DNA from: Dipteris shenzhenensis
Taxonomy: Eukaryota
DNA: 64,000 nt
NCBI GenBank assembly: GCA_047967505.1
Contig: CM106538.1
Strand: one strand, 5' to 3'
A program made the position numbers and the translations under genes. The notes beneath the pieces were generated by a model that worked only from the letters and a program-made list of their open reading frames with translations, had not been told where the DNA came from and did not search any database. Below are positions 25,530-41,371 of the stretch, piece after piece. Numbering within the stretch: the first letter of the stretch is position 1; the number at the start of each line of letters is the position of its first letter.

Positions 25530-27556
25530 CCCAATTCCTGCACACCAAGCAGGTTTCTGAATTTGCGTAGCTTCTCTGTACCCATCCATCATAAAAAACA
25601 TCTCTGCTCACTGTAAACTTACAAATAGAAGGATTATAGCATCTATACCCTTTCTGCTACAAAGAATAACCAATAAAGATGCACTTCTCAGCTTTTGGAT
25701 CCAACTTGGATCTCAACTCATTTGGCACATGAACATATGCAATGCAACCAAAAACTTTCAAATGAGAAATATCTAGTTTCCTACCAGTAAACCTCTCCTC
25801 TGGCATCATGCCATGTATTGCTGCAATGGGAGTCCTGTTCATTATGTAGACTACTGTAGCAACTGCTTCAGCCCAATAATAATCTAGTAGGTCTTTTGCG
25901 TTAAGCATGGCACAAGATACCTCTCCAATATTCCTGTTTTTCCTTTCTATAAGTCCATTTTGCTGTGGGATATGACTGCATGAATATTGCTGCTTTATGC
26001 CATGCACGTGCAGGAACCTTGCAAACTCATTTGAGAGGTACTCTCCCCCTCCATCTGACCTTAGGCATTTTATTTACAAGCATGTTTCTTTTTCAACCAT
26101 AGCTTTAAAAGCTTTGAAATGCCCAAACTCTTCACTTTTCTTTTTCATAAGATACACCCAAACTTTTTGTTGTAGTCATCAATAAAAGTGACAAAATAAT
26201 GACAGCCTCCAATAGATGCAACTTTAGTAGTCCACACATCAGAGTGGATTAATTCCAATGGCCTCTTACTCTCTTGAACATATCTAGGAAATGGTTTCTT
26301 GCCTGTTTTCCAAATTGATAGGCTTCACATACCTTATGCATTTCTACAACCTTGAACTTAGGCAATCCTACAACAATATTTTGGGCTTGCATTAATTTAA
26401 GTCGATGTACATTAACATGACCAATGCATTTATGCCAAATATCAATATTTGCAATTACACTGGTCCCATGTACCAACATTGCTGCACTCAATTCAGGCAT
26501 GTCCGCATCCAACATAAACATCCTACCCTTCTTCTTCCCTTTTGCTATCAAGCGACCTTTATTTTTCATATCCTCAACAAAGCATCCATGAGGATTAAAT
26601 ATGACCTGCAAGCCCTACTTAACCATTTGACCAATAGAAACCAGGTTCTTGGTGATATTTGGGACATGAAATACATCAGACAGGTATTTCTTTTTTCCAT
26701 CCTACATAGACAAAGGAATTTTACCAATCTGCACAATAGGATGTGCAGTATCATCACCAGTCTCCACAAATCCTGGTCTTTTCATTTTTCTTGCATCCTG
26801 CATCCATTCTACGTGACCTATCATGTGGTTTGATGCACCTGAGTCAACATACCACACATCATTGCTTTCTTCTACACTTGTCATAGAATTGGTCATGTGC
26901 TGCACCATAAACAGATGCTCATTTCTGCCATCACCCTGTCTACTAGAGGATGCATAATTGCCTTGCTGCAATTTTCTAGTCATGATGTCATTCTTCTTTT
27001 TATAGCAGTCTTTAACCATATGACCCATTTTACCACATTAGTAGCATTCAACATTGTTGTTTTCATTTTGGCCTCTTTGCCATCCACCACAACCTCTTTG
27101 ACTCCCACGTCCTCCTCCATAGGACTGATTTTCTTGAATTTGTTGCATATTATGATTTTTGCCATGGCCTCCAAATCAGCCTACTCTACCTCTGCCTCTA
27201 CCTCTTCTAGCATTTGAGTAGAAGACAGCTTCTTTTGAAGTTCCTCTTGAAGAAGATGCACCACCATTTCTCTACTCTTCAGAAATTAGAAGAGCAATCA
27301 ACTCCTCAAAATCAGGAAAATTCTAATGGATAGCAATGGATGTCTGGAATTGTGCATAATCCTTTCCTTAACCATTCAAGGTCATAGAACTAAATCATCA
27401 TCTTCCACTGGTGACCCAATAGAAGCAAGTGCATCTGCAATCTTCTTCACCTTCATGTGGTAGTCATTAATGCTCATATTTTGTCTCTACACATTATGCA
27501 GCTCCTACTTGAGTTGCATTTTCCTGGCTTGTGTATTTGTGCTATACATTTTTGTC
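25530..27556 (-). pseudogene. D gag-protease-integrase remnant fused to the last RNase H codons
   Basis: GHMVKDC, WYVDSGASNHM, IWHKCIGHVN, PQQNGLIERKNR, KLDPKAEKCIFIGYS; jumps near 25583 to ..GTEKLRKFRNLLG. Confidence 0.9.
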
Positions 27557-27561
27557 AAAGT

Positions 27562-27818
27562 TGACAAAATATAAAGAGGGGAGAGGAGAAGAGTGGAGAT
27601 GAGGAGAGAGGGCATAGCGAGAGAGCACACCACAAATGACTAACTATACACTAGATTTAGTTGAAAAAATAGAATATATACAAACCCATTTAGGGTTAGG
27701 GTTAGGGGATCTAACCCTTTCCTTTATAGCACTCTATAAGGTTAGTACTATGCACATATGATCACATGATGGTGCTATGCACACATGATCACATGATGTT
27801 GAGCATGAACTCTCAACA
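27562..27818 (-). repeat. 3' LTR of C2
   Basis: TGACAAAA..TCTCAACA, adjacent to PPT (ccttccctc on +). Confidence 0.95.
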
Positions 27819-28178
27819 CCTTCCCTCAAGGTCAACATCATGAAGTAGGCCTTCCCTCAAGATGATGATTCTAGGGAATCGAAGAAAGACTGAGCATTAC
27901 ATTCCATCACACCCCTTTAATGGGAATGTCCTTCCTTTGCATCAAACCAAGAGCTAGTCGGTGTTTCTCAGATAGCTCTTTACCGAGTGGTTTGGCAAAG
28001 ATGTCTGCAACATTCTCTTTGCTATCACAATGCTGTAGTGTGATGTCACCAAGTAACACTCTTTCTCTGATGAAGTGCTCTCTGACATCAATGTGCTTTG
28101 TCCTGGAGTGATATACACTGGATTTTTGGCCAATTCTTGAGCCGATTGATTATCACAATATATTGTTGTTGGCTTAGA

Positions 28179-28435
28179 TGACAAAATATGAAGAGGGGAG
28201 AGGAGAAGAGTGGAGATGAGGAGAGAGGGCACAGCTAGAGAGCACACCACAAATGACTAACTGTACACTAGAATTAGTTGAAAAAATAGAATATATACAA
28301 ACCCTTTTAGGGTTAGGGTTAGGGAAGCTAACCCTTTCCTTTATAGCACTCTATAAGGTTAGTGCTATGCACATATGATCACGTGATGGTGCTATGCACA
28401 CATGATCACATGATGTTGAGCATGAACTCTCAACA
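28179..28435 (-). repeat. 3' LTR of C1
   Basis: Near-identical to 35265-35521. Confidence 0.97.
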
Positions 28436-28523
28436 CCTTCCCTCAAGATCAACATCATGAAGTAGGCCTTCCCTCAAGATGATGATTCTGGGGAATCGAA
28501 GAAGGACTGAGCATTACATTCCA

Positions 28524-31500
28524 TCACACCCCTTTAATGGGAATGTCCTTCGTCTGCATCAAACCAAGAGCTAGTCGGTGTTTCTCGAATAGCTCTTTAC
28601 CGAGTGGTTTGGTAAAGATGTCTGCAACATTTTCTTTGCTATCACAATGCTGCAGTGTGATGTCACCAAGTAACACTCTTTCTCTGATGAAGTGCTCTCT
28701 GACATCAATGTGCTTTGTTCTGGAGTGATATACTGGATTTTTGGCCAATGCTTGAGCCGATTGATTATCACAGTATATTGTTGTTGGCTTTGACTCATCA
28801 AAGTAATCTATTTCTGACAATAGTCTTCTGAGCCATATAGCCTCACATGCACCTGTAGTGAGTGCCCTATATTCTGCTTCAGTCGAAGACAAAGAAACAG
28901 TTGGCTGTTTGTTTGACAACCATGATATAGCACCTTGACCAAGGAAGAATGCATATCCCTGTGTCGATCTCCTGGTCTCATGATCTCCAGCATAGTCACT
29001 ATCACAGTATCCATGCAACCGTGGATGACTTCCTCTGTATTCTATCCCAAATTGTCTTGTACCTCTGATGTATCTCAAGACTCTTTTGGCTGCATTCCAG
29101 TGAGACTGTTTTGGATTTGCCATAAATTGTGCTAGTGAGCTTACTGCATAACAAATATCTGGCCGTGTGATTGTCAGATATATAAGAGATCCAATGAGTT
29201 GCCTGTAGTATCTGTCATTGACTGTAGGCTTTTCTGAATCTTTAGTAAGTTTCAAACTCTGTTCCATGGGAGTGGCTGCAATCTTGCAATCTGCCATATG
29301 AAACTTCTTCAGGAGACTGTCAACATATTTGAGCTGACTCATGAATGTGCTATCTGAATCTCTCCAGAACTCAATTCCAAGACAATAGTGCATAAGTCCA
29401 AGATCTTTCATGTCGAACTCTGCAGATAAGTCTTGTTTTAGCTTTCTGATGAAGCTATCCTTGCTTCCTGTCACAATCAGATCATCTACGTACAAAAGTG
29501 CAATAGTAATATCCTCCCCTTGAACTTTGTAGTAGAGAGTATGATCTGCATTGGACTTCATGTATCCCAGATCAGCAAAATGCTTGTCAATCCTGTTGTA
29601 CCAACTTCTGGGTGCTTGCTTTAAGCCATAGAGACTTTTCTTGAGATGGCAAACCTTGTTCTCCTGTCCTGGTTCAACATAACTGGCTGGTTGTTGCATG
29701 TAGACTTTTTCGTCTAGATAACCATTGAGAAATGCATTCTTGACATCGAGCTGATACACATTCCATTTACTGAGTGTTGCTAGTGATATCAAGAACCGTA
29801 TGGAATCCATCTTTGCTACTGGAGCATAAGTCTCATCATAATCTTGACCATATTGTTGTGCAAATCCTTTTGCAACTAATCTGGCTTTGTATCTCTGAAT
29901 ACTGCCATCTGGATTGTACTTCACTTTGTATACCCATTTGTTGGCTATGGCCTTCTTTCCTGGTGGAAGGTCGCATAATTCCCAAGTGTTATTTTTATAC
30001 AAAGCATCCATTTCTTCATTCATTGCAGTTTGCCATTCTGGCTTATCTACTGCGTCTTCGAAGTACACTGGCTCTTCTGTAGCCATGATGGTAGTCATAA
30101 GAGCATAGTTGGTGGTTTCCACCTGAATTGCTAATCTGGCTGGTGGTCTGCTTTCCCTAGTAGACCGTCTGAGCTGCTGTGACGCTGATTGGGGTGTTGC
30201 TGGCAATTCTTGCTCTTCTTCATCAACCTGTTCTGTAGATGACTGTGAAGTCGATGCTTCTATCTCCTGTGTAGGTAAGGTTTTCCATTCTGATTCCTCA
30301 TCGAAGATTACATCTCTGGAGATAATGACTTTGCGGTTGATGGGATCATACAATTTGTATGCTTTACTTTCTTCACTGTAGCCAACCATGATGCATTTGC
30401 GTGACTTCGCATCCAATTTCCTGCGATGATCATCATGTATGTGGGCATATGCTATGCAACCAAATATGCGGAGATGCCCAATGCGTGGCTTGTGTCCAGT
30501 GAATGCTTCATAAGGAGTCATACCTTGTATCGGTTCGGTAGGAAGCCGATTAAGCAAGTAGTTAGCTGTAGCTATTGCTTCTGCCCAATACTGATTCGGA
30601 AGATGCTTTTCACTAAGCATTGCTTTAGCACTGTCTGCTAAAGTCCCATTCTTCCTTTCAGCTATTGCATTTTGCTGAGGAGTATCTGCACATGTGAATT
30701 GTCTTCGAATGCCGTGAGTTTTGCAAAAGTTCATGAAGGCTGAAGACATGTATTCATCTCCTCTGTCTGATCTCATGACCTTGATTTTTCTGCCTGTCTG
30801 GTTTTCTACCATGGCTTTGAATTCTTGAAATCTGGCAAACACTTCAGATTTTTCTTTCAGAAAGTAGACCCAACAATATCTGCTGTAGTCGTCGATGAAG
30901 GTCAAGTAATAAAGTGAACCATTGATGCTGCGGGTCTGGGCATAACCCCATACATCTGTATGAATTAAATCAAGAATACCTCGTGCACGAGAGGTACTTC
31001 TGACAAAGTTGGTTCGCTTTTGTTTGCCGAAGCAGCATGCTTCACAAACCTTTCCAAGAAACTGTAGCTTCGGAATCCCAATTGCCATATTTTGATTCCT
31101 TAGATCTAACAAGTACTTGAAGTTGACATGACCATATCTCTTGTGCCATTTTGCAGATAGTGGCATCTGTTGCATTTGAGCTGACATGGCATGTTTATCT
31201 GGTACTATAGCTAGCATCCTGTATAAGCGTCCTTCCTTGACACCTTTTGCTACTAGCTGACCTCTTTTGGATTTGTCTCTGATAGTGCATTCATCACCGT
31301 CGAAGATGACTTTGTAGTTGTGTTCCGTCATTTGACCTACTGACAAAAGTTTCTTGCTGAGCTTCGGAACATAGAGCACATCTTTGACTAATCCTTTTGT
31401 ACCAGTGAAATTGTTCATAGGGATAACTCCTGTCCCTTGAACCGGATTCGGTGTATTGTCTGCTGTATAGATGACATTCTTTTGACCTTCTAATGGCTTC

Positions 31501-31850
31501 ATTTCTGTGAACCATTCCTGATGATTTGTCATATGAGATGATGCACCGCTGTCGATGTACCAAGGATCCTGTTCCACTTGGTCGACTTGATAGCTGAAAT
31601 CTTCTTTGGGATTGAAATCAGTGTCTAGGTGCATTGTATCAGTCTGATGCAATTCCTCACTTGCAAGAAACATATTTCCATGTTCATTTGCAAAATGACT
31701 GTGACTAGAATGTCCACCACGATGATTTCCTCTTCCTCGGGAATTCCCTCTATTACTGTTGGATTGACCGCCTTGGTCATACTGCTTCTTGCGGCAATCT
31801 CTTTCATAGTGCCCAAACTTGTGACAATAGTTGCATTGAATGTTTGACAC
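28524..31850 (-). CDS. pol: Copia polyprotein (Zn knuckle, protease, integrase, RT, RNase H); open frame of 1108 aa
   Basis: CNYCHKFGHYERDC, WYIDSGASSHM, IHTDVWG, TPQQNAIAE, QLDVKNAFLNG, LYVDDL, YCDSDYAG, ADIFTK. Confidence 0.95.
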   Translation of the reverse strand: MSNIQCNYCHKFGHYERDCRKKQYDQGGQSNSNRGNSRGRGNHRGGHSSHSHFANEHGNMFLASEELHQTDTMHLDTDFNPKEDFSYQVDQVEQDPWYIDSGASSHMTNHQEWFTEMKPLEGQKNVIYTADNTPNPVQGTGVIPMNNFTGTKGLVKDVLYVPKLSKKLLSVGQMTEHNYKVIFDGDECTIRDKSKRGQLVAKGVKEGRLYRMLAIVPDKHAMSAQMQQMPLSAKWHKRYGHVNFKYLLDLRNQNMAIGIPKLQFLGKVCEACCFGKQKRTNFVRSTSRARGILDLIHTDVWGYAQTRSINGSLYYLTFIDDYSRYCWVYFLKEKSEVFARFQEFKAMVENQTGRKIKVMRSDRGDEYMSSAFMNFCKTHGIRRQFTCADTPQQNAIAERKNGTLADSAKAMLSEKHLPNQYWAEAIATANYLLNRLPTEPIQGMTPYEAFTGHKPRIGHLRIFGCIAYAHIHDDHRRKLDAKSRKCIMVGYSEESKAYKLYDPINRKVIISRDVIFDEESEWKTLPTQEIEASTSQSSTEQVDEEEQELPATPQSASQQLRRSTRESRPPARLAIQVETTNYALMTTIMATEEPVYFEDAVDKPEWQTAMNEEMDALYKNNTWELCDLPPGKKAIANKWVYKVKYNPDGSIQRYKARLVAKGFAQQYGQDYDETYAPVAKMDSIRFLISLATLSKWNVYQLDVKNAFLNGYLDEKVYMQQPASYVEPGQENKVCHLKKSLYGLKQAPRSWYNRIDKHFADLGYMKSNADHTLYYKVQGEDITIALLYVDDLIVTGSKDSFIRKLKQDLSAEFDMKDLGLMHYCLGIEFWRDSDSTFMSQLKYVDSLLKKFHMADCKIAATPMEQSLKLTKDSEKPTVNDRYYRQLIGSLIYLTITRPDICYAVSSLAQFMANPKQSHWNAAKRVLRYIRGTRQFGIEYRGSHPRLHGYCDSDYAGDHETRRSTQGYAFFLGQGAISWLSNKQPTVSLSSTEAEYRALTTGACEAIWLRRLLSEIDYFDESKPTTIYCDNQSAQALAKNPVYHSRTKHIDVREHFIRERVLLGDITLQHCDSKENVADIFTKPLGKELFEKHRLALGLMQTKDIPIKGV

Positions 31851-32760
31851 ATTGGTGGATGCATTCCCTCGTCCTTGGAATCTTCCTCTGTTGGAATGAT
31901 TTCCTCTTTGCTGATTTTGATGTTGCTGAGGATGCTGCTGATGCTGATGCTGATTCTGACTTTGATTTTGACCACTTTTCTGATATGATCTACCTCTGTT
32001 TCTGCCTTTGCCTCTGCTTCTGTCTGAAGCTGTGAATGCCTGATCATTACAATGACCTTTACGTGCTTGAATGGCCTAAATCCTGAGTTCTTCACCAAGT
32101 AGAACTGACTGAAGTTCTTCAAGTGTTGGAATTTGCCGTTGGATGGCAATACTCTGGACCAGATTCTCATATCCTTCTCCTAGTCCATTCAGGATTACTT
32201 GAACCATTTCTGCGGGATTCATAGTTTCTCCTGCTGCTGCAAGTTGATTGTTGTAGTCTTTGATGCGGAGTACATAAGCATGACCAGTTTCATTGCTATT
32301 GCGGAAACTCTGGTTGATCTGGTTTCTCAGGGTGAGAATCCTGGATGTGTTCTTGGACTCGTAGAGAGCTGCGAACATATCCCATGCTTCTTTTGATGTC
32401 TTGACTGTGTTGAGCTGTCCTAGCATGACATCTTGCACATTCTACTTGATCAGGTGATAGGCATACTTATCTTTCTTATCCCATTCTGCTTGAGCTCGGG
32501 CAATGGCAGGATCTGCTACTGGTGCGGAAACTGTTTGTGTAGATGTAGATCCCGATGTAGATCCCGTTGCTGGTGCTGTGACAACAGATGGAGTAGAGCT
32601 ACTCGTGGCTGGATCGGCCAATGGTCTAGGTATGGAACCATCAACATACTCCCATTTGTCCTGAAGCACAAGAATGGTCTCCATTCGGTATTTCCATGTA
32701 CCGTAATTGGAGTTGTCTAACTTAGCAGATGCCTCTAGATTGAGGTTGCTAGTCGACATG
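31851..32760 (-). pseudogene. gag: C1 gag, in frame with pol but with two TAG stops (32442-32444, 32076-32078)
   Basis: MSTSNLNLEASAKLDNSNYGTWKYRME..HLIK*NVQD..EELRI*AIQ.. Confidence 0.88.
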
Positions 32761-33650
32761 GTGCAAACAATGTACTCAAAAGTGTCCTGAAAAAACTCTG
32801 TATGAATCAACTGCAAATACACTGAAGATGCCAAGTGAAATCTCTGTACCGTCGGTGAAGATAGAACTGCAGTAAATAAGATCTGACCTGTGTTACAAGG
32901 CTTGTGGCAATGATGCCGGGAATAGCCAAGAGGCTTTACAAGGCTGAAAAATGATGTGCACGATGCCGTGAGATAGCCAAATAGGCTTTACAATGGTGGC
33001 ATGTGTGTCTGAAATCAAGTGCTATCTGCCCACTGAATCAATCTGCAATGCCTCTGAACTCTGAAGTCTGCTCACTGAACTGATGAACGTAAGATTTCAG
33101 GTAATGTAATGATGTGAAATCGGATGTGAGCGTATGGACTGACTCCGAGTAGGTACTAGTCGGGAATTTTGGGCATGGCTTAGATTGGCAACTTGGGGAA
33201 TTCAAAGCGTCCCCTCTATGGCGATCTAGTCTACTCTGATCTAGATCTAAACCAACCGTCGATCGATGAAAGAGCAGCAAATAATTCCTTTTCCTTTGTT
33301 CTTTTTAAGTGCTGGGTCAGATGCGTCGATGTAGAGGCAAATGTGCGTGAAGGAAGTGGTTTTGTCGGCGAAGCTCAAATGTGAGTGTAACTTGCGCCGA
33401 AATGTGCGCGTGATGTAACGAGCGCGTAGAGCACAAAAAATCGAGCGACTTTCCTTTTTGGAGCACCCTCAAATTCTTCCTGGATCAAGAGATATGACTT
33501 GATCTAGGTGGAGGGGCAAAAGGAGTGCAAATGGTGCTCAATGATGATGTGTCACTGTGAGTCACATGCAGTGATGATGTGGCACTGTGCTTAGCAAGAG
33601 GTGTGCCAGTGAAGCTCTGTGCTGAGGTGGCAGTGCTGAGGTGTCACTGA

Positions 33651-33920
33651 TGACGTGGCACTGATGACGTGGCAGTAATGACGTGGCAGCTGACGTGGCA
33701 GTGATGACATGGCAGCTGACATGGCAGTGATGATGTGGCACAGATGACGTGGCACAAGTGACGTGGCAGATGACGTGGCCTGATGATGTGGTAGAGGTGA
33801 CGTGGTAGGTGACGTGGCAGAATGACGTGGACTGCTTACGTGGCGCTGATGATGTGGCTCCGATGGTGACGTGGCAGATAAGATTGTCTGATGACGTGGT
33901 AGATGGATAAGGGCCACGTG
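33651..33920 (+). promoter_or_regulatory. Array of about 12 TGACGTGG (Hex/ABRE-type bZIP sites) in the C1 leader
   Basis: TGACGTGG(C) repeated at 12-14-bp spacing, plus TACGTGGC and CCACGTG. Confidence 0.6.
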
Positions 33921-34538
33921 TCACAAGGAGGCCGATCGAAATCTTTGAGATTCTGACGGAATCTCAAAGATTCCGTCTTCTTCTTCGAATGAGCCGTCAA
34001 TGGAGCTGGGTTGAAGAAGCCGCCGTTCGAGGCGTTGTAGGAGGCGTCGCTCGACGAAGAGGCTTGGAGCGCTGCACGAAGGAGGTCGCCGGAGTTCGTG
34101 GGAGCTGTTCGTAGCGAGAGGAGTTGGGAGACGAGGGCGCTGTAGAAGGCTATGGCGGCCGTGGAGCTATGAATGGCGGCCGTGGAGAGCTCTTGTGAGG
34201 TCGCTGTAGTAGCTGTATCGCGTTGCACGAGCGCCCGAGACCAAGAGCTTGGGCTCTGTCTTCGTGTTGTTTTGACGGGCAAGGCTTGAAGCGAGAATGC
34301 GTGGAGGCAGAGTTCGTTTGGAGCCTTCAAGGCTTTGTTGGAGAAGACTCGTTGATGAGCTTGTTGATGGGAGCCTTCGCGGCTGTGTGCAGATGGAGGG
34401 GCGCTTCGTTGTAGCGTAAGCTTGTTGTAGCTAGGAGCTTGCACAGGGACTGTTGTCGCTCGTAGTTGATGGAGCGCAGTTGAAGTACGTGTCTCTCGTT
34501 GGAAGGCTAGGGAGCTTGGCACGCCTGAAGGTGTTGCA

Positions 34539-34844
34539 GACTATACGGCTTTGCTCCCCGATGAGTGTTTAGCTTGCATCTTTCAAAAGATGTGCGCCAC
34601 TGATCGCAATCAGTGCTCTCTTGTATGCAAGCGCTGGCACTCGGTGGAGGGGCAGGGACGCCAACGCCTTTCCCTCCTTGCGCACGCTGAGATTGTTTCG
34701 CATCTGCCAGCCCTCTTCACTCGATTCGACCATGTCACCAAGCTTGCTCTCAGATGCGACAGGAAGACTGCTAGCATCACTGACACGGCTCTCTTTTTAG
34801 TCGGCCGAAACTGTATCCATTTGAGGAAGCTCAAGCTCAAAGGT
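34539..34844 (+). pseudogene. Captured fragment of a VIER F-box (VFB)/SKIP2-type F-box-LRR gene, antisense inside C1
   Basis: DYTALLPDECLACIF..CSLVCKRWHSVEGQGRQRLSL..LPALFTRFDHVTKLALRCDRK..LRKLKLKG; no ATG; truncated at both ends; lies between C1 PBS and gag. Confidence 0.9.
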
Positions 34845-35252
34845 TCGTCGTTTGCAGTGGAGCTGTAGTATGTCCCTCTCCAGTCCTCAAACTCTGAAAA
34901 AAAGGACTCTTACTCCCTGGCTTTTCTTTCCATCAACAACTCTCTTTTTCTCTCAAAGACAAGATTTCCTCCTCCAAATCTCAACCTCACGGAACTCTCC
35001 CTATCTTTCTCACAAAGATAATGGATGGACAATCTCTCTCTCACTCATAATGGAAGTCCTCACAAAGAATGAACGGAATGAATAACTCTCTCAAATGACG
35101 GAAATCTCTCAAGAACAAATGACGGAAATCTTCTTCCGATGGACGGAATTTTCTCTCAACGGAAGAGAATGGAACACTCAATCTCTCTCAATCTCTCAAT
35201 CTCTCAATCACTCTCACAAGAAGGATGGCGCCTCAACGGAAGGCAGAACCAT

Positions 35253-35264
35253 GCTCTGATACCA
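35253..35264 (-). other. PBS of C1 (TGGTATCAGAGC, tRNA-iMet)
   Basis: Directly follows the 5' LTR on the minus strand. Confidence 0.95.
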
Positions 35265-35521
35265 TGACAAAATATGAAGAGGGGAGAGGAGAAGAGTGGA
35301 GATGAGGAGAGAGGGCACAGCTAGAGAGCACACCACAAATGACTAACTGTACACTAGAATTAGTTGAAAATATAGAATATATACAAACCCTTTTAGGGTT
35401 AGGGTTAGGGAAGCTAACCCTTTCCTTTATAGCACTCTATAAGGTTAGTGCTATGCACATATGATCACGTGATGGTGCTATGCACACATGATCACATGAT
35501 GTTGAGCATGAACTCTCAACA
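35265..35521 (-). repeat. 5' LTR of C1
   Basis: TG..CA termini; followed by PBS. Confidence 0.97.
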
Positions 35522-35526
35522 TTAGA

Positions 35527-37741
35527 ATCATCAAAGTAATCTGTTTCTAACAATAGTCTTCTAAGCCATATAGCCTCACATGCACTTGTAGTGAGTGCTC
35601 TATATTTTGCTTTAGTCAAAGACAAAGAGATAGTTGGCTGTTTGTTTGACAACCATGATATAGCACCTTGACCAAGGAAAAATGCATATCCCTGTGTCGA
35701 TCTCCCGGTCTCATGATCTCTGGCATAGTCACTATCATAGTATCCATGCAACCGTGGATGACTTCCTCTCTATTCTATCCCAAATTATCTTGTACTTCTG
35801 ATTTATCTCAAGACTCTTTTGGCTGCATTCCAATGAGACTGTTTTGGATTTGCCATAAACTGTGCTAGTGAGCTTACTGTATAATAAATATCTGGCCATG
35901 TGATTGTTAGATATATAAGAGATCCAATGAGTTGCCTGTAGTTTCTGTCATTGACTATAGGCTTTTTTGAATCTTTAGTAAGTTTCAAACTCTGTTCCAT
36001 AGGAGTGGCTACAATCTTGCAATCTGCCATATGAAACTTCTTCAGGAGACTGTCAACATACTTGAGCTGACTCATGAATGTGCTATCTGAAGTTCTCCAA
36101 AACTCAATTCCAAGACAATAGTGCATAAGTCCAAGATCTTTCATGTTGAATTCTGCAGATAAGTCTTGTTGCAGTTTTCTAATGAAGCTATCCTTGATTC
36201 CTATAACAATCAGATCATCTATGTATAAAAGTGCAATAGGAATGTCTTCCCCTTGAACTTTGTAGTAGAGAGTATGATCTGCATTGGACTTCATGTATCC
36301 TAGATCAGCAAAATACTTGTCGATTCTGCTGTACCAACTTTTGGGTGCTTGTTTTAAGCTATAGAGGCTTTTCTTGAGATGGCAAACCTTATTCTCCTTT
36401 CCTAGTTCAACATAACCTACTAGTTGTTACATGTAGACTTCCTCGTCTAGATAACCATTGAGAAATGTATTCTTGACATCGAGCTAATACACATTCCATC
36501 TGCTGAGTGTCGCTTGTGATATCAAGTACCATATGGAATCCATCTTTGCTACTGGAGCATAAGTCTCATCATAGTCTTGACCATATTGTTGTGCAAATCC
36601 TTTTGTAACTAGTTTGGCTTTGTATCTCTGAATACTGCCATCTGGGTTGTACTTCACTTCTGAGTACACTGTATCAGTCTGATGCATTTCCTCGCTTGCA
36701 AGAAACATATTACCATGTTCATTTGCAAAATGACTATGACTAGAATGTCCACCATGATGATTTCCTTTGCCTCAAAAATTCCCTCGATTGCTACTGGATT
36801 GACCTCCTTGGTTGTACTGCTTCTTGCGGCAATCTCTTTCATAGTGTCCAAACTTGTGACAGTAGTTGCATTGAATGCTTGACACATTGGTGGATGCATT
36901 CCCTCGTCCTTGAAATATTCCTCAGTTGGAATGATTTCCTCTTTGTTGATTCTGATGATGCTGATGCTGATTTTGTTGCTGATGATGACCACTTTTTTGA
37001 TATGATCTACCTCTGCCTCTGCCTGATCATTAGAATGACCTTTACATGCTTGAATTTCCTGAGTTCTAAGTTCTTCACAAAGTAGAACTGACTGAAGTTC
37101 TTCCAGTGTCGGAATTTGCCATTGAATGGCAATACTCTGGACTAGATTCTCGTATCCCTCTCTCAGTCCATTTAGAATGACTTGAACCATTTCTACGAGG
37201 TTCATAGTCTCTCCTGCTGCTGCAAGTTGATTGTTGTAGTCTTTTATGCAGAGTACATAAGCATGACCAGTTTCACTGCTGTTGCGGAGACTCTGGTTGA
37301 TCTGGTTTCTCAGGGTGAGAATCCTGGATGTGTTCTTGGACTTGTAGAGAGCTGCGAACATATCCCATGCTTCTTTTGATGTCTTGATTATGTTGAGCTA
37401 TCCTAGCATGACATCTTGCACATTCTACTTGATCAAATGATAGGCATCCTTGTCTTTCTTATCCCATTCTGCCTGAGCTCAGGCAATGGCAGGATCTGCT
37501 ACTGGTGTAGAACTATTTGTGCCACTGTAGATGTCATTGTAGATCCTGTTGCTGGTGCTATGACAATAGATGTAGTAGAGCTACTAGTGGCTGGATCAGC
37601 CAATGGTCTAGGTGTAGACCCATCGACATACTCCCATTTGTCTTGAAGTACAAGAATTGTCTCCATTCAATATTTCCATGTACTGTAATTGGAGTTGTCT
37701 AACTTAGCAGATGCCTCTAGATTGAGGTTGCTAGTCAACAT
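35527..37741 (-). pseudogene. C2 gag-pol remnant (gag joined to RT/RNase H; continues at 27909-28173)
   Basis: Junction QTDTVYS|EVKYNPDGSIQRY near 36660; LYIDDL; YYDSDYARD. Confidence 0.92.
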
Positions 37742-39967
37742 GGTGCAAGAAACGTACTCAAAAGTGTCGTGAAAATCTCTGTATGAATCAACTGCAAATA
37801 CACTGAGTATGCCAAGTGAAATCTCCAAACCATTGGTGAAGATAGAACTGCAATATATAAAATCTGATCTATATTACAAGGCTTGTGGCAATGATGCTGG
37901 GAATAGCCAAGAGGCTTTACAAGGCTGAAATGATGTGCACGATGCCGTGAGATAGCCAAATAGGCTTTACAATGTTGGCATGTGTGTGTGAAATCAAGTG
38001 TTATCTACCCACTAAATCAATCTGCAATGCCTCTGTACTCTCTGAAGTCTGCTCACTGAACTGATGAACGTAAAGTTTCAGGTAATGTAATGATGTGAAA
38101 CCGTATGTGAGTGTATGGATTGACTTCGAGTAGGTACTAGTCAGGAATTTCGGGCATGGCTTAGATTAGCAACTTGGGGAAATTCAAAGTGTCCCCTCTA
38201 TGGCAATCTAGTCTACTCTAATCTAGATCTATACCAACCATGGATTGATGAAAGGACAACAAATAATTCCTTTTCTTTTATTCTTTTTAAGTGCTGGGTC
38301 AGATGTGTCGATGTAGAGGCAAATGTGCATGAAGGAAGTGGTTTTGTTGGCGAGGCTCAAATGTGAGTGTAGCTTGCACCAAAATATGTGCATGATGTCA
38401 CAAGCGCATAGAGCACAAAAAAATGAGCGACTTTTCTTTTTGGAGTACCCTCAAATTCTTCATGGATCAAGAGATATGACTTGATCTAGGTGGAGGGGCA
38501 AAAGGAGTGCAAATGTGCTCAATGATGATGTGTCACTGTGGGTCACATGTAGTGATGATGTGGCACTATGCGTGCCCACAAAAATCAGTGCTCATTGGAT
38601 AGCTGAGATGGCATAAATGATGATATCAGTAGATGACATGGCAATGTTGACATGACAATGATGATGTGGTTGGTGATGTGACAGTGATGATGTGGCTGCC
38701 ACCGTGGTAGATGAGGTGGCAGATAATTCTGACATGGTGAGTGCGGGAGATTATTGATGTTGCAAGTGGGGTTGATGTGGCAAATAAGGAGATAAGGCCA
38801 CGTGTTAGGATGTAGTGCCCCAAAATCTGGGAAAGATGCCAACAGAATCTTTGGGATTCTGTCGTCTTCTCCGTCATTGGTCTTGAATGTTGAGCTTTGT
38901 GGAGGCGATGGAACGTTGTTGGCGAGTAGCCCGTTGGCTCTCTATAAGAATTGCTAATGAAGAAGCTTGCTGTTCGAGAGCCGAGATCATGAGCCAGTCG
39001 TTGGTGTTGGAGATATCGCTATTGTGCGGGATCGCTGCTTGGATTCAAGCTTGGAGCTTTGCAGGGACGTCACTACTACTGGAGAAGGTTGTATTCCTTG
39101 GAGGTTGTAGAGAAGTGCATTGGAGCATAGGAAGGAGCCTTAGAGCTCCTTAGTGCAGTCAGGCCATGAGCGTTGAGTCGAGGAACTTGGCGCAGAAGCT
39201 CTATTGGAAGCTTTGAGTTTGTAAGAGATAAAAGCAGGTCAAGGCTGAACACAAATGCAAGTCGAAGCATGTGCGTGGAAGCTTGCTGGAGCGTGCTAAG
39301 TCATCGATGATGTGTGCAGTGTTAGAGCAGCCAGTCGTTGTAGGAGGCTTTTCTTGGTGTAGAGGCTATCGTTGTTGGGCTAGAGTAGGGCTGGAGTAGT
39401 CGACTAAAAGACGACTATTGGAGAAGCTTCTTGAGCTGGTGGACATAGGCTAAGCACAGGACGTCATCGGCACTGGCAGTCAACGTATTGAAGGAGCTGG
39501 TGAGCTATAGTCACATAGGTGGCAATTGATGAGCCATGTGAGCTAGGAGCATTGGAGCCATAGGAGCTTGTATATGCTGCACACGGGCTATTGTAGTGCT
39601 GCTACTACAAGCTATGGGTTGTAGAGAAGGGGTTGCCTATGATGGGTGAGGTTGACTATTGACGATGTAGGGCTCAAGGGAATCCCGTGGCTGAACTCCT
39701 ACATTTCTATGCTTGTTGATGATGGTAATTACCTGCATAGCTCAAAACTCTACCTCACTCAATCGGATAGAATACAGAGGAGCAGCTCTCTCTCTCTCTC
39801 TCTCAATAAACAGAAATTCCTCACATGAATGGAATTCTCTCTTTCAATGAACAAAAATCCTTCACTCAACGGAAGTGAACAGAATGAAAGACTACCTCTC
39901 AATCTCTCAATCTCACACTCTCAAGGATTGCAATGCCTCAGCAGAAGGCAAGGGAGCTCTGATACCA

Positions 39968-40224
39968 TGACAAAATATGAAGAGGGGAGAGGAGAAGAGT
40001 GGAGATGAGGAGAGAGGGCATAGCTAGAGAGCACACCACAAATGACTAACTGTACACTAGATTTAGTTGAAAAAATAGAATATATACAAACCCATTTAGG
40101 GTTAGGGTTAGGGGATCTAACCCTTTCCTTTATAGCACTCTATAAGGTTAGTGCTATGCACATATGATCACATGATGGTGCTATGCACACACGATCACAT
40201 GATGTTGAGCGTGAACTCTCAACA
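39968..40224 (-). repeat. 5' LTR of C2
   Basis: Followed on the minus strand by PBS TGGTATCAGAGC. Confidence 0.95.
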
Positions 40225-40229
40225 AAAGT

Positions 40230-40520
40230 ATCCCATGCCTCATTCGACGTGCTTGCATCCTGAATATGCACAATCATAGAAATTGAAATATTGATAGACA
40301 GCCAGTACATAACTTTTCTGGCTCTCTCATGCCAGCCTTTAAATGCCTGCAACTCCTGTTGATTGGGAACATTAGGAATAACTAGTTCTTGTTCAGCTCT
40401 AGTAATGAACTCCCAATAGCCTTTTCCCTTAAGGAAATTCGTCATTCTAAACTTCCATGCTTGGAAGTTGTTCTTGCCAAGCTTTTCAGTGACAATCTAT
40501 GAAAGAGCATCAAATGCCAT
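40230..40520 (-). pseudogene. gag: N-terminal gag of D
   Basis: KLGKNNFQAWKFRMTNFLKGKGYWEFI..EAWDT. Confidence 0.88.
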
Positions 40521-41043
40521 TACAGAACACTGCAAAATATTCTGTTACTGGAAAAAAACACAACTTTTGCCTCACAAGGGCAAATCTGCAAAACTGACGA
40601 AAGTGGTATTTGACCACACAGTCACTTCCTAGTGATGATTATGCATCAACAGGCAATAAGAATGATTTTGTCACTCCCAATATCTCTATGCACAGACATA
40701 CGATGTAATTTTTGCGATAACTTTTCATCGACATGCAGAACAGTGGTCGCACATAAAAAATAGGGCACTTTCCTGAGTGCCTGTGGAAAACTTCCACCAC
40801 CAAAATGGGCCTCGAATCAAAAAAATAATTTCACCAAGGGCTTTGCCCTTACCGTAGCGTATACTGCCCTCTCGCCACACTGCAAAGGGCGTCTTGCACT
40901 CTTGCACTTTTCGACTGTGCTACCTGCAAAGATTTTCTCCCAAACTCGAAAAAAAAGGAAAGCAACACTGATCCTCTTACTAGGACACCATGAACTTGGT
41001 TTGCCTTCTTGAGCTCCTTACCATGAACCGAGCTCTGATACCA

Positions 41044-41371
41044 TGTGAAGAGAGTGAGAGAGAAGGAAGGAGTCTCACTTGCAGCTTTCTCACATACACA
41101 ATGGGGGAATATACACAAAGGTGGAGACTGAAAATAGTTTTCCTCTTCTTAGTTGTGAAAGCCAAAATAACCCTAAGTACAAAAGAATAGGTGAACCCTA
41201 TATGTGGGTCTCAAACCAAACTCAGCTATCTAAGGTGGCATACTAACTGAGACACTAACTAGAGTACATAAAGATAGCTGTCATCCAGCTATTATTCATG
41301 CTAACAAGTCGGTGACATAAATGCACAATAGTCACCCTGGCATATCACGAGTGGAGCTCGATATCTCAACA
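41044..41371 (-). repeat. 5' LTR of D (328 bp, about 25 bp shorter than the 3' LTR)
   Basis: Followed by PBS at 41032-41043. Confidence 0.92.

Follow-up and report, generated by a model that had tools for sequence, protein, structure and literature searches.

A leader segment that does not align among three copies of a plant Ty1/copia family, and an antisense F-box gene fragment within one of its versions

Introduction

Tobacco Tnt1 reportedly falls into subfamilies with specific U3 regions and similar coding parts; a non-coding regulatory part that differs sharply between subfamilies may likewise mark the family described here, the part being the LTR U3 in Tnt1 and not the leader. Among Ty3/gypsy elements, the hypervariable 3′ UTR of the Tat/Ogre group is ascribed, in the passages of PMC7004042 that treat it, to abnormal strand transfers (Macas et al. 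2009 as cited in PMC7004042). The untranslated leaders of the grapevine Ty1/copia elements Tvv1 and Noble are polymorphic in size through large deletions and insertions and measure 269–695 bp, according to the corresponding passages of PMC2576258. Gene fragments are also transduced by LTR retrotransposons, as in maize Bs1 and the captured genes of rice and sorghum; the parts of PMC7264820 concerned with them describe such pieces as present in one or few copies and usually in sense.

Here, we analyse a 64-kb window of repeat-rich plant DNA (the whole stretch that was studied) holding three copies of one Ty1/copia family. These copies, C1, C2 and C3 of family C, all lie on the minus strand and within 21 kb, and two of them are nested. 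Between the PBS and gag, each carries at the same place a segment, hereafter the slot, that does not align with its counterparts. As in Tat/Ogre, to go by the passages of PMC7004042 that describe it, a delimited untranslated region varies in sequence and length among similar elements; conserved flanks enclose the non-homologous region in family C as well, and a tandem array of TGACGTGGCA units lies right beside it. Unlike the Tat/Ogre region, which these passages place in the gypsy 3′ UTR, the slot sits in a Ty1/copia 5′ leader, is not itself made of tandem repeats (the 14-bp array next to it is what varies in copy number), and shares a word signature between its versions. With Tvv1 and Noble, as far as these passages of PMC2576258 go, family C has in common the copia host element, the location of the variable region between PBS and ORF, and variation that is structural rather than by point changes, whereas those leaders change in size and family C keeps a length of ~0.85–1.0 kb and replaces the sequence. 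Finally, C1 resembles the Bs1-like transductions outlined in PMC7264820 in having a cellular gene piece, seen in one copy only, in the internal region of a transposed element, and differs from them in that the piece is antisense to gag-pol, spans ~105 codons, has no start codon and lies in the 5′ leader.

Results

Three Ty1/copia copies, two of them nested

The assignment of these copies to Ty1/copia, proposed in a first-pass annotation of the window, is borne out by LTRs, target site duplications (TSDs), PBS and Pfam domain order. The integrase of C1 precedes its reverse transcriptase: on the 1183-aa C1 ORF, Pfam places gag_pre-integrs at residues 308–352, rve at 370–465 and RVT_2 at 695–938, with Retrotran_gag_2 and Retrotran_gag_3 upstream of this pol ORF. 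Two TG...CA LTRs with a 5-bp TSD are present in both C1 and C2, and in C1 the PBS adjoins the 5′ LTR. The elements and their parts are as follows.

28179–35521, minus strand: C1, a complete Ty1/copia element with LTR pair, TSD TTAGA and the expected Pfam domain order
35265–35521, minus strand: C1 5′ LTR, reading TGTTG...GTCA on the minus strand
28179–28435, minus strand: C1 3′ LTR, partner of the 5′ LTR
35253–35264, minus strand: C1 PBS, TGGTATCAGAGC, directly after the LTR end
28524–32759, minus strand: C1 gag-pol, with two in-frame stop codons (32442–32444 and 32076–32078)
27562–28178 (3′ part) and 35522–40224 (5′ part), minus strand: C2, LTRs 97.7% identical, TSD AAAGT
39956–39967, minus strand: C2 PBS, TGGTATCAGAGC, the same as in C1
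19415–23630, minus strand: C3, truncated, cut within pol at 19415, with most of the 5′ LTR and the PBS lost

The two C1 LTRs (257 bp each) differ at a single position and are 99.6% identical; the shared PBS presumably matches the initiator Met tRNA. C1 is inserted in the RNase H region of C2 pol, the two halves of C2 joining at adjacent positions of the C1 homologue, and C2 is the older copy. Both C1 and C2 transposed as units: because the target duplications of both are perfect, either slot version was carried along when its element transposed. The gag ATG of C1 lies at 32759, which gives its leader a length of ~2.5 kb. Despite its nearly identical LTRs, C1 carries the two in-frame gag-pol stops listed above, and it may derive from a master copy that was defective already, or may have been mobilised in trans.

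Searches by the gag N-terminus confirmed no family C relative among 52 pattern matches in viral contigs and 596 in metagenome contigs, and the exact LTR–PBS 24-mer had no match in metagenome contigs. Among the 24 sequencing runs listed by a run-level search the best share was 0.40, and no RNA run was among them. The protein collection searched contains no relative of the pol ORF above 48% identity, and family C is therefore not represented in it.

Layout of the leader

Read in the sense direction, the leader runs from the LTR and the PBS through a GA-rich module of repeat motifs to the slot; beyond the slot come the conserved anchor and its stem-loop, the tandem array of ACGT-core motifs, a conserved stretch of 0.8 kb and finally gag. 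The modules that flank the slot are the following.

34881–35252, minus strand: PBS-proximal module of C1, CT-rich on the plus strand, with CTCTC runs and ATGACGGAA-like motifs, poorly conserved
33926–34008, minus strand: conserved anchor (GGAGAAGAC, or CCAWTGACGG on the sense strand) and stem-loop of C1, abutting the gag-side edge of the slot
33930–33975 (C1), 38815–38860 (C2) and 22270–22315 (C3), minus strand: stem-loop beside the gag-side breakpoint of the slot, from folding and three-copy alignment
33541–33925 (C1), 21834–22071 (C3) and 38604–38700 (C2), no strand assigned: tandem array of TGACGTGGCA-type units, period 14, ACGT core, between slot and gag
32760–33540, minus strand: conserved gag-proximal leader of C1, 89–92% identity between copies

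Pairwise identities of the gag-proximal leader are 91.6% (C1–C2), 91.8% (C1–C3) and 89.4% (C2–C3). Taken together, gag, pol and this leader stretch are 89–93% identical among the three copies, and third codon positions 87.8–90.7%. The hairpin of C1 comprises 19 pairs (−25.7 kcal/mol, z −3.3); the consensus of the three copies retains 17 pairs, four of them with compensatory changes. The array differs in copy number between copies, Tandem Repeats Finder (TRF) reporting 17.9 copies at 33619–33858 in C1. Its units read TGATGTGGCA or TGACATGGCA in C2 and C3, where the CpGs have decayed, and these variants are as expected from CpG decay. The TGACGTGGCA array might be a putative enhancer of the stress type.

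Slots of similar length at one place that do not align

All three copies cease to align at one left anchor (...GTCTTCT..CCGTCAWTGG), within a few bases and beside the conserved stem-loop; its last base is 34008 in C1, 38888 in C2 and 22340 in C3. The right anchor, TCAAACTC, is short, lies in the poorly conserved CT-rich module and is found near 34888, 39741 and 23343, respectively. These anchors delimit the slots as follows, refining the earlier limits of 33985–34870 (C1), about 38875–39740 (C2) and about 22330–23340 (C3).

34009–34880, minus strand: C1 slot, 872 bp, made up of slot-type sequence (34009 to ~34529), an F-box piece (~34530–34844) and a slot-like tail (34845–34880)
38889–39740, minus strand: C2 slot, 852 bp, slot-type throughout
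22341–23340, minus strand: C3 slot, 1000 bp, with the slot-type signature strongest at 22350–23150

At word size 7, blastn gave no HSP inside 33985–35085 of C1, 38880–39775 of C2 or 22332–23353 of C3. Smith-Waterman scores between slots were 17–19, against 14–15 ± 2 for Markov shuffles (within ~1–3 standard deviations), and a global alignment of the C1 and C2 slots reached 42.5% identity, the level of unrelated sequence. Recoding into the two-letter alphabets RY, SW and KM likewise produced no alignment of the slots, with control leader scores of 388–507, and hypermutation of the slots was rejected on these grounds. Because neutral divergence is only ~10%, judged by third codon positions and the proximal leader, a neutral stretch of 0.9 kb should align easily; ordinary divergence cannot account for the non-homology of the slots.

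The slots are nevertheless alike in composition, with 32–39% G and a GC skew of +0.27 to +0.35 on the plus strand. The first-pass annotation had reported that the copies align in their flanks around unalignable slots of similar length and composition. This description stands: the slots score like shuffles while the flanks are ~90% identical, and the left breakpoint is common to all three copies.

A word signature common to the slots

The sense strand of the slots is C/A-rich and repeatedly uses the short words CAAC, GCTCCAA, CTACAAC and CAAGCTT. On the other strand, TTGGAGC, GTTGTAG and AAGCTTG are strand-specific words common to the non-F-box part of C1 and the whole slots of C2 and C3, and GTTG occurs 18–28 times per kb in slots, compared with 5.7 per kb in the window. 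The three slots have 28 7-mers in common, where 4.6 ± 2.4 are expected; GGAGCTT in rotated forms accounts for many of them, and others are of the GTTGTAG type. Between slots, 8-mer matches number 42, 47 and 74, where 15, 17 and 27 are expected (~2.7-fold; none of 200 dinucleotide-model shuffles was as high). Trinucleotide profiles correlate at r = 0.71–0.90 from slot to slot, at 0.18–0.24 with the F-box piece, and at no more than 0.37 with the other element parts compared.

We also ran a leave-one-out scan in which a third-order Markov model was trained on two slots and the third was scored against the whole 64-kb window on both strands. Scan intervals inside the slot beat the best interval elsewhere in three of three cases for C1, six of six for C2 and six of eight for C3. 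The signature was not found at other places in the 64-kb window, which contains several other repeat families, on either strand. Its profile stops at the F-box piece, which lacks it. The slot-type sequence of C1 (34009 to ~34529) and the slots of C2 and C3 are thus one kind of sequence.

The common words are scattered and not colinear. No colinear block between slots was significant, the longest match being 35 bp at 77%, and diagonal tests for internal duplicates within slots stayed at chance. At 34152–34192 in the C1 slot, a 15-mer (ATGGCGGCCGTGGAG) is duplicated at a spacing of 21 bp, the sole clear internal repeat in any slot.

Several candidate contents of the slots were examined and rejected. 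A Pfam search covering 72 slot ORFs of at least 30 aa (4 further ORFs were left out) yielded none that reached the cut-off. The longest slot ORF, an open frame of 234 codons, has no relatives among 1.84 billion protein representatives, contains no Met and lies in stop-poor sequence. We found no coding periodicity in the slots beyond a short-range G-N-N-G bias. Protein-coding slots were rejected on the combined lack of Pfam match, relatives and Met, with the stop-poor composition explaining the 234-codon frame. Tandem or cryptic periodic repeats were dismissed as well: TRF found no array in the slots, autocorrelation no peak, and long-range repeats were at chance. No slot matched Rfam, which excludes a known RNA family as its content (one weak hit, E 0.85, fell outside the slots), and sense-strand folds of the slots gave z-scores of −1.5, −2.3 and −0.1, amounting to no structural signal, on which a structured sense RNA was rejected.

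An antisense F-box gene fragment in the C1 slot

One part of the C1 slot is of cellular origin, as the first-pass annotation had recognised.

34530–34844, plus strand: VFB/SKIP2-type F-box gene fragment, covering the F-box and the beginning of the LRR region, open in frame, antisense to C1

The plus-strand frame at 34470–34868 matches the Pfam F-box with E 1.3e-10. It is related to F-box-LRR proteins of the VFB/SKIP2 (At1g47056-like) type, which are ~500 aa long. The fragment corresponds to residues 55–158 of a 526-aa relative, or ~105 codons, and lacks a start codon ahead of the F-box. The best protein match is 83% identical; among named matches, ferns are closest, at 65–72%. In tblastn, 104 of 104 VFB/SKIP2 proteins matched the fragment, the best over 104 aa at 81.7% identity (E 7.6e-52). 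The HSPs end almost uniformly after ...KLKLKG (92 at 34844 and 8 at 34841, hence 100 of 104), and most start between 34515 and 34539. Elsewhere in the window, the slots of C2 and C3 included, the same 104 proteins had no match beyond chance (best other E 0.13). Comparison of the F-box ORF with proteins of similar length gave no match.

The full LRR domain of a VFB/SKIP2 protein is absent, and the piece is a fragment and not a gene. At ~315 of 872 bp, it occupies ~36% of the C1 slot. Between it and the right anchor lie ~35 bases of slot-like sequence (TGGAGC, GCTGTAG), and the F-box piece therefore sits within slot-type sequence and does not form the slot. We rejected the slot-type sequence of C1 as a VFB N-terminus, only low-quality extensions matching upstream of ~34515. 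C1 thus holds a cellular gene fragment between its LTRs, as in Bs1-like transduction, and departs from the usual gag-pol sense, the piece coding on the plus strand and the element on the minus strand. The hexamer TTGCAG is present at both edges of the piece (34524–34529 and 34851–34856); it could be a capture microhomology, or could be chance.

Uneven divergence and upstream ATG codons

How far C1 and C2 have diverged varies from one part of the element to the next, as the following identities illustrate.

LTRs: 95.7–96.9%
pol 3′ end with 3′ UTR: 96.3%
pol: 92.9%
gag: 90.9%
Proximal leader: 91.6%
Motif array: 65.7%
Anchor and hairpin: 65.3%
Slot: 42.5%
PBS-proximal module: 55.8% (over 34881–35170)

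The LTRs are closer than third codon positions, which points to recombination within family C, and the uneven divergence as a whole fits within-family recombination. The three fast modules, namely the array, the slot and the PBS-proximal module, are those rich in repeated motifs or words.

The sense leader of C1 without the F-box piece (32760–35170, minus strand) contains 7 ATG where 24.3 are expected, and none of 2000 simulations was as low; its plus strand, with 70 against 52.9 expected, is not depleted. The F-box piece adds 5 upstream ATG (5.6 expected). For the C1 slot alone, the count is 0 against 1.0 expected, a lack that follows from its dinucleotide content. C2 and C3, the older copies, are not poor in ATG (14 against 9.2 and 19 against 11.1 expected), possibly as a result of ACG to ATG decay in old methylated copies.

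Discussion

On balance, we think it probable that the slot is a fast-turnover leader module owned by the family, to which a separate F-box capture was added in C1. The evidence comes from three copies in one 21-kb cluster, and the mechanism by which the slot changes is inferred. The slot would be a module of the element's own ~2.5-kb untranslated leader and not a container for host sequence. Its sequence would turn over, or be swapped between sublineages, far faster than the remaining element. As co-packaged RNAs are reverse transcribed, they would most likely undergo illegitimate recombination or abnormal strand transfer, and one of the breakpoints would be fixed beside the stem-loop. The slot would keep its length and composition, probably because a scannable leader is required. 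Within this scheme, the C1 lineage would have taken up ~315 bp of VFB/SKIP2-type coding sequence, in antisense, near the PBS-side end of its slot, in a one-off event of no evident use to the element; the antisense orientation could have arisen if plus-strand synthesis switched to an mRNA template, or if filler DNA was inserted at a break. What speaks against this reading is that no significant colinear blocks or internal duplicates were found, although repeated rearrangement through microhomology would be expected to leave such traces.

The first-pass annotation had proposed a dedicated hypervariable cassette, refilled repeatedly with host mRNA fragments by template switching of the reverse transcriptase. 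Its structural part holds, in that there is a delimited non-homologous segment with a common left breakpoint and one F-box fragment; the repeated sampling of host mRNAs is not supported. A real host coding fragment in C1, the left breakpoint common to three copies, the similar slot lengths (872, 852 and 1000 bp) and the documented gene capture by LTR retrotransposons (as portrayed in the relevant parts of PMC7264820) would all suit such a cassette. However, a detectable host piece is present in one slot of three and fills ~36% of it, none of the 72 slot ORFs reached the Pfam cut-off, and neither C2 nor C3 has a trace of VFB; within the limits of three copies and of searches at the protein level, no other copy contains host-derived sequence. 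These searches cover coding host pieces, and non-coding pieces such as UTRs lie outside their reach. The remaining slot sequence bears a strand-specific signature that is common to the copies and absent from the F-box piece, and it speaks against host sampling, since transcripts taken up independently from the host would have no such signature in common. The piece is, moreover, antisense, whereas the transduced sequences treated in those parts of PMC7264820 usually follow the gag-pol sense. We regard repeated host sampling as very improbable. Pieces drawn from a single non-coding source, such as another abundant element or repeat with this signature, would yield a common signature and orientation, yet the signature occurs nowhere else in the 64-kb window on either strand and no donor is visible there, which makes this origin highly doubtful.

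A signature and orientation shared without positional homology would also be expected if an ancestral slot-type leader of several kb had suffered large deletions, each copy keeping a different, non-overlapping part; the grapevine copia elements Noble and Tvv1, in the passages of PMC2576258 on their leaders, vary by large single deletions or insertions. Since homology is lost at one left anchor, the same starting point would be required of two or more independent deletions; the similar lengths of the three remnants would be a matter of chance, and no pair of slots overlaps. Differential deletion is accordingly an unlikely explanation. Alternatively, the slot could be an idiomorph-like cassette of fixed place, length and composition and without start codons, replaced wholesale at a breakpoint set by the stem-loop, so that the target of small-RNA silencing changes and the leader function is kept, foreign uptake such as the F-box piece being a by-product; we consider this decidedly unlikely. 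Ancient slot versions carried on homogenised backbones would need slot lineages several times older than gag-pol.

Under the favoured reading of a family-owned leader module, the slot is best read as comparable to the hypervariable UTR regions known from plant LTR retrotransposons. If the pattern holds across the family, a copia leader module would keep its position, length, strand composition and word content without positional homology, which would point to a constraint on RNA properties and not on sequence, and a strand-transfer hot spot would lie beside a conserved stem-loop. The known range of hypervariable UTR regions, so far the 3′ UTRs of gypsy elements, would then widen to include the 5′ leaders of copia elements. 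The F-box piece adds a further gene-fragment capture by a plant LTR retrotransposon, unusual in its antisense orientation and otherwise ordinary. So far, the finding is based on three copies.

Surroundings of the copies

The nest in which C1 and C2 lie has three levels and spans 25159–41371 of the window: C1 is in C2 pol, and C2 in turn apparently lies inside another copia-like element. This outermost element has LTR-like repeats at 25159–25511 and 41044–41371 with 88.7% identity, and position 41044 is immediately preceded by a PBS-like GCTCTGATACCA. The truncated end of C3 adjoins a long CT-rich repeat block (14767–19415) that is strongly strand-skewed, with a GC skew down to −0.8, and has many internal repeats. 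Each family C LTR contains three tandem TTAGGG units, at 35393–35410, 28307–28324, 27690–27707 and 40096–40113.
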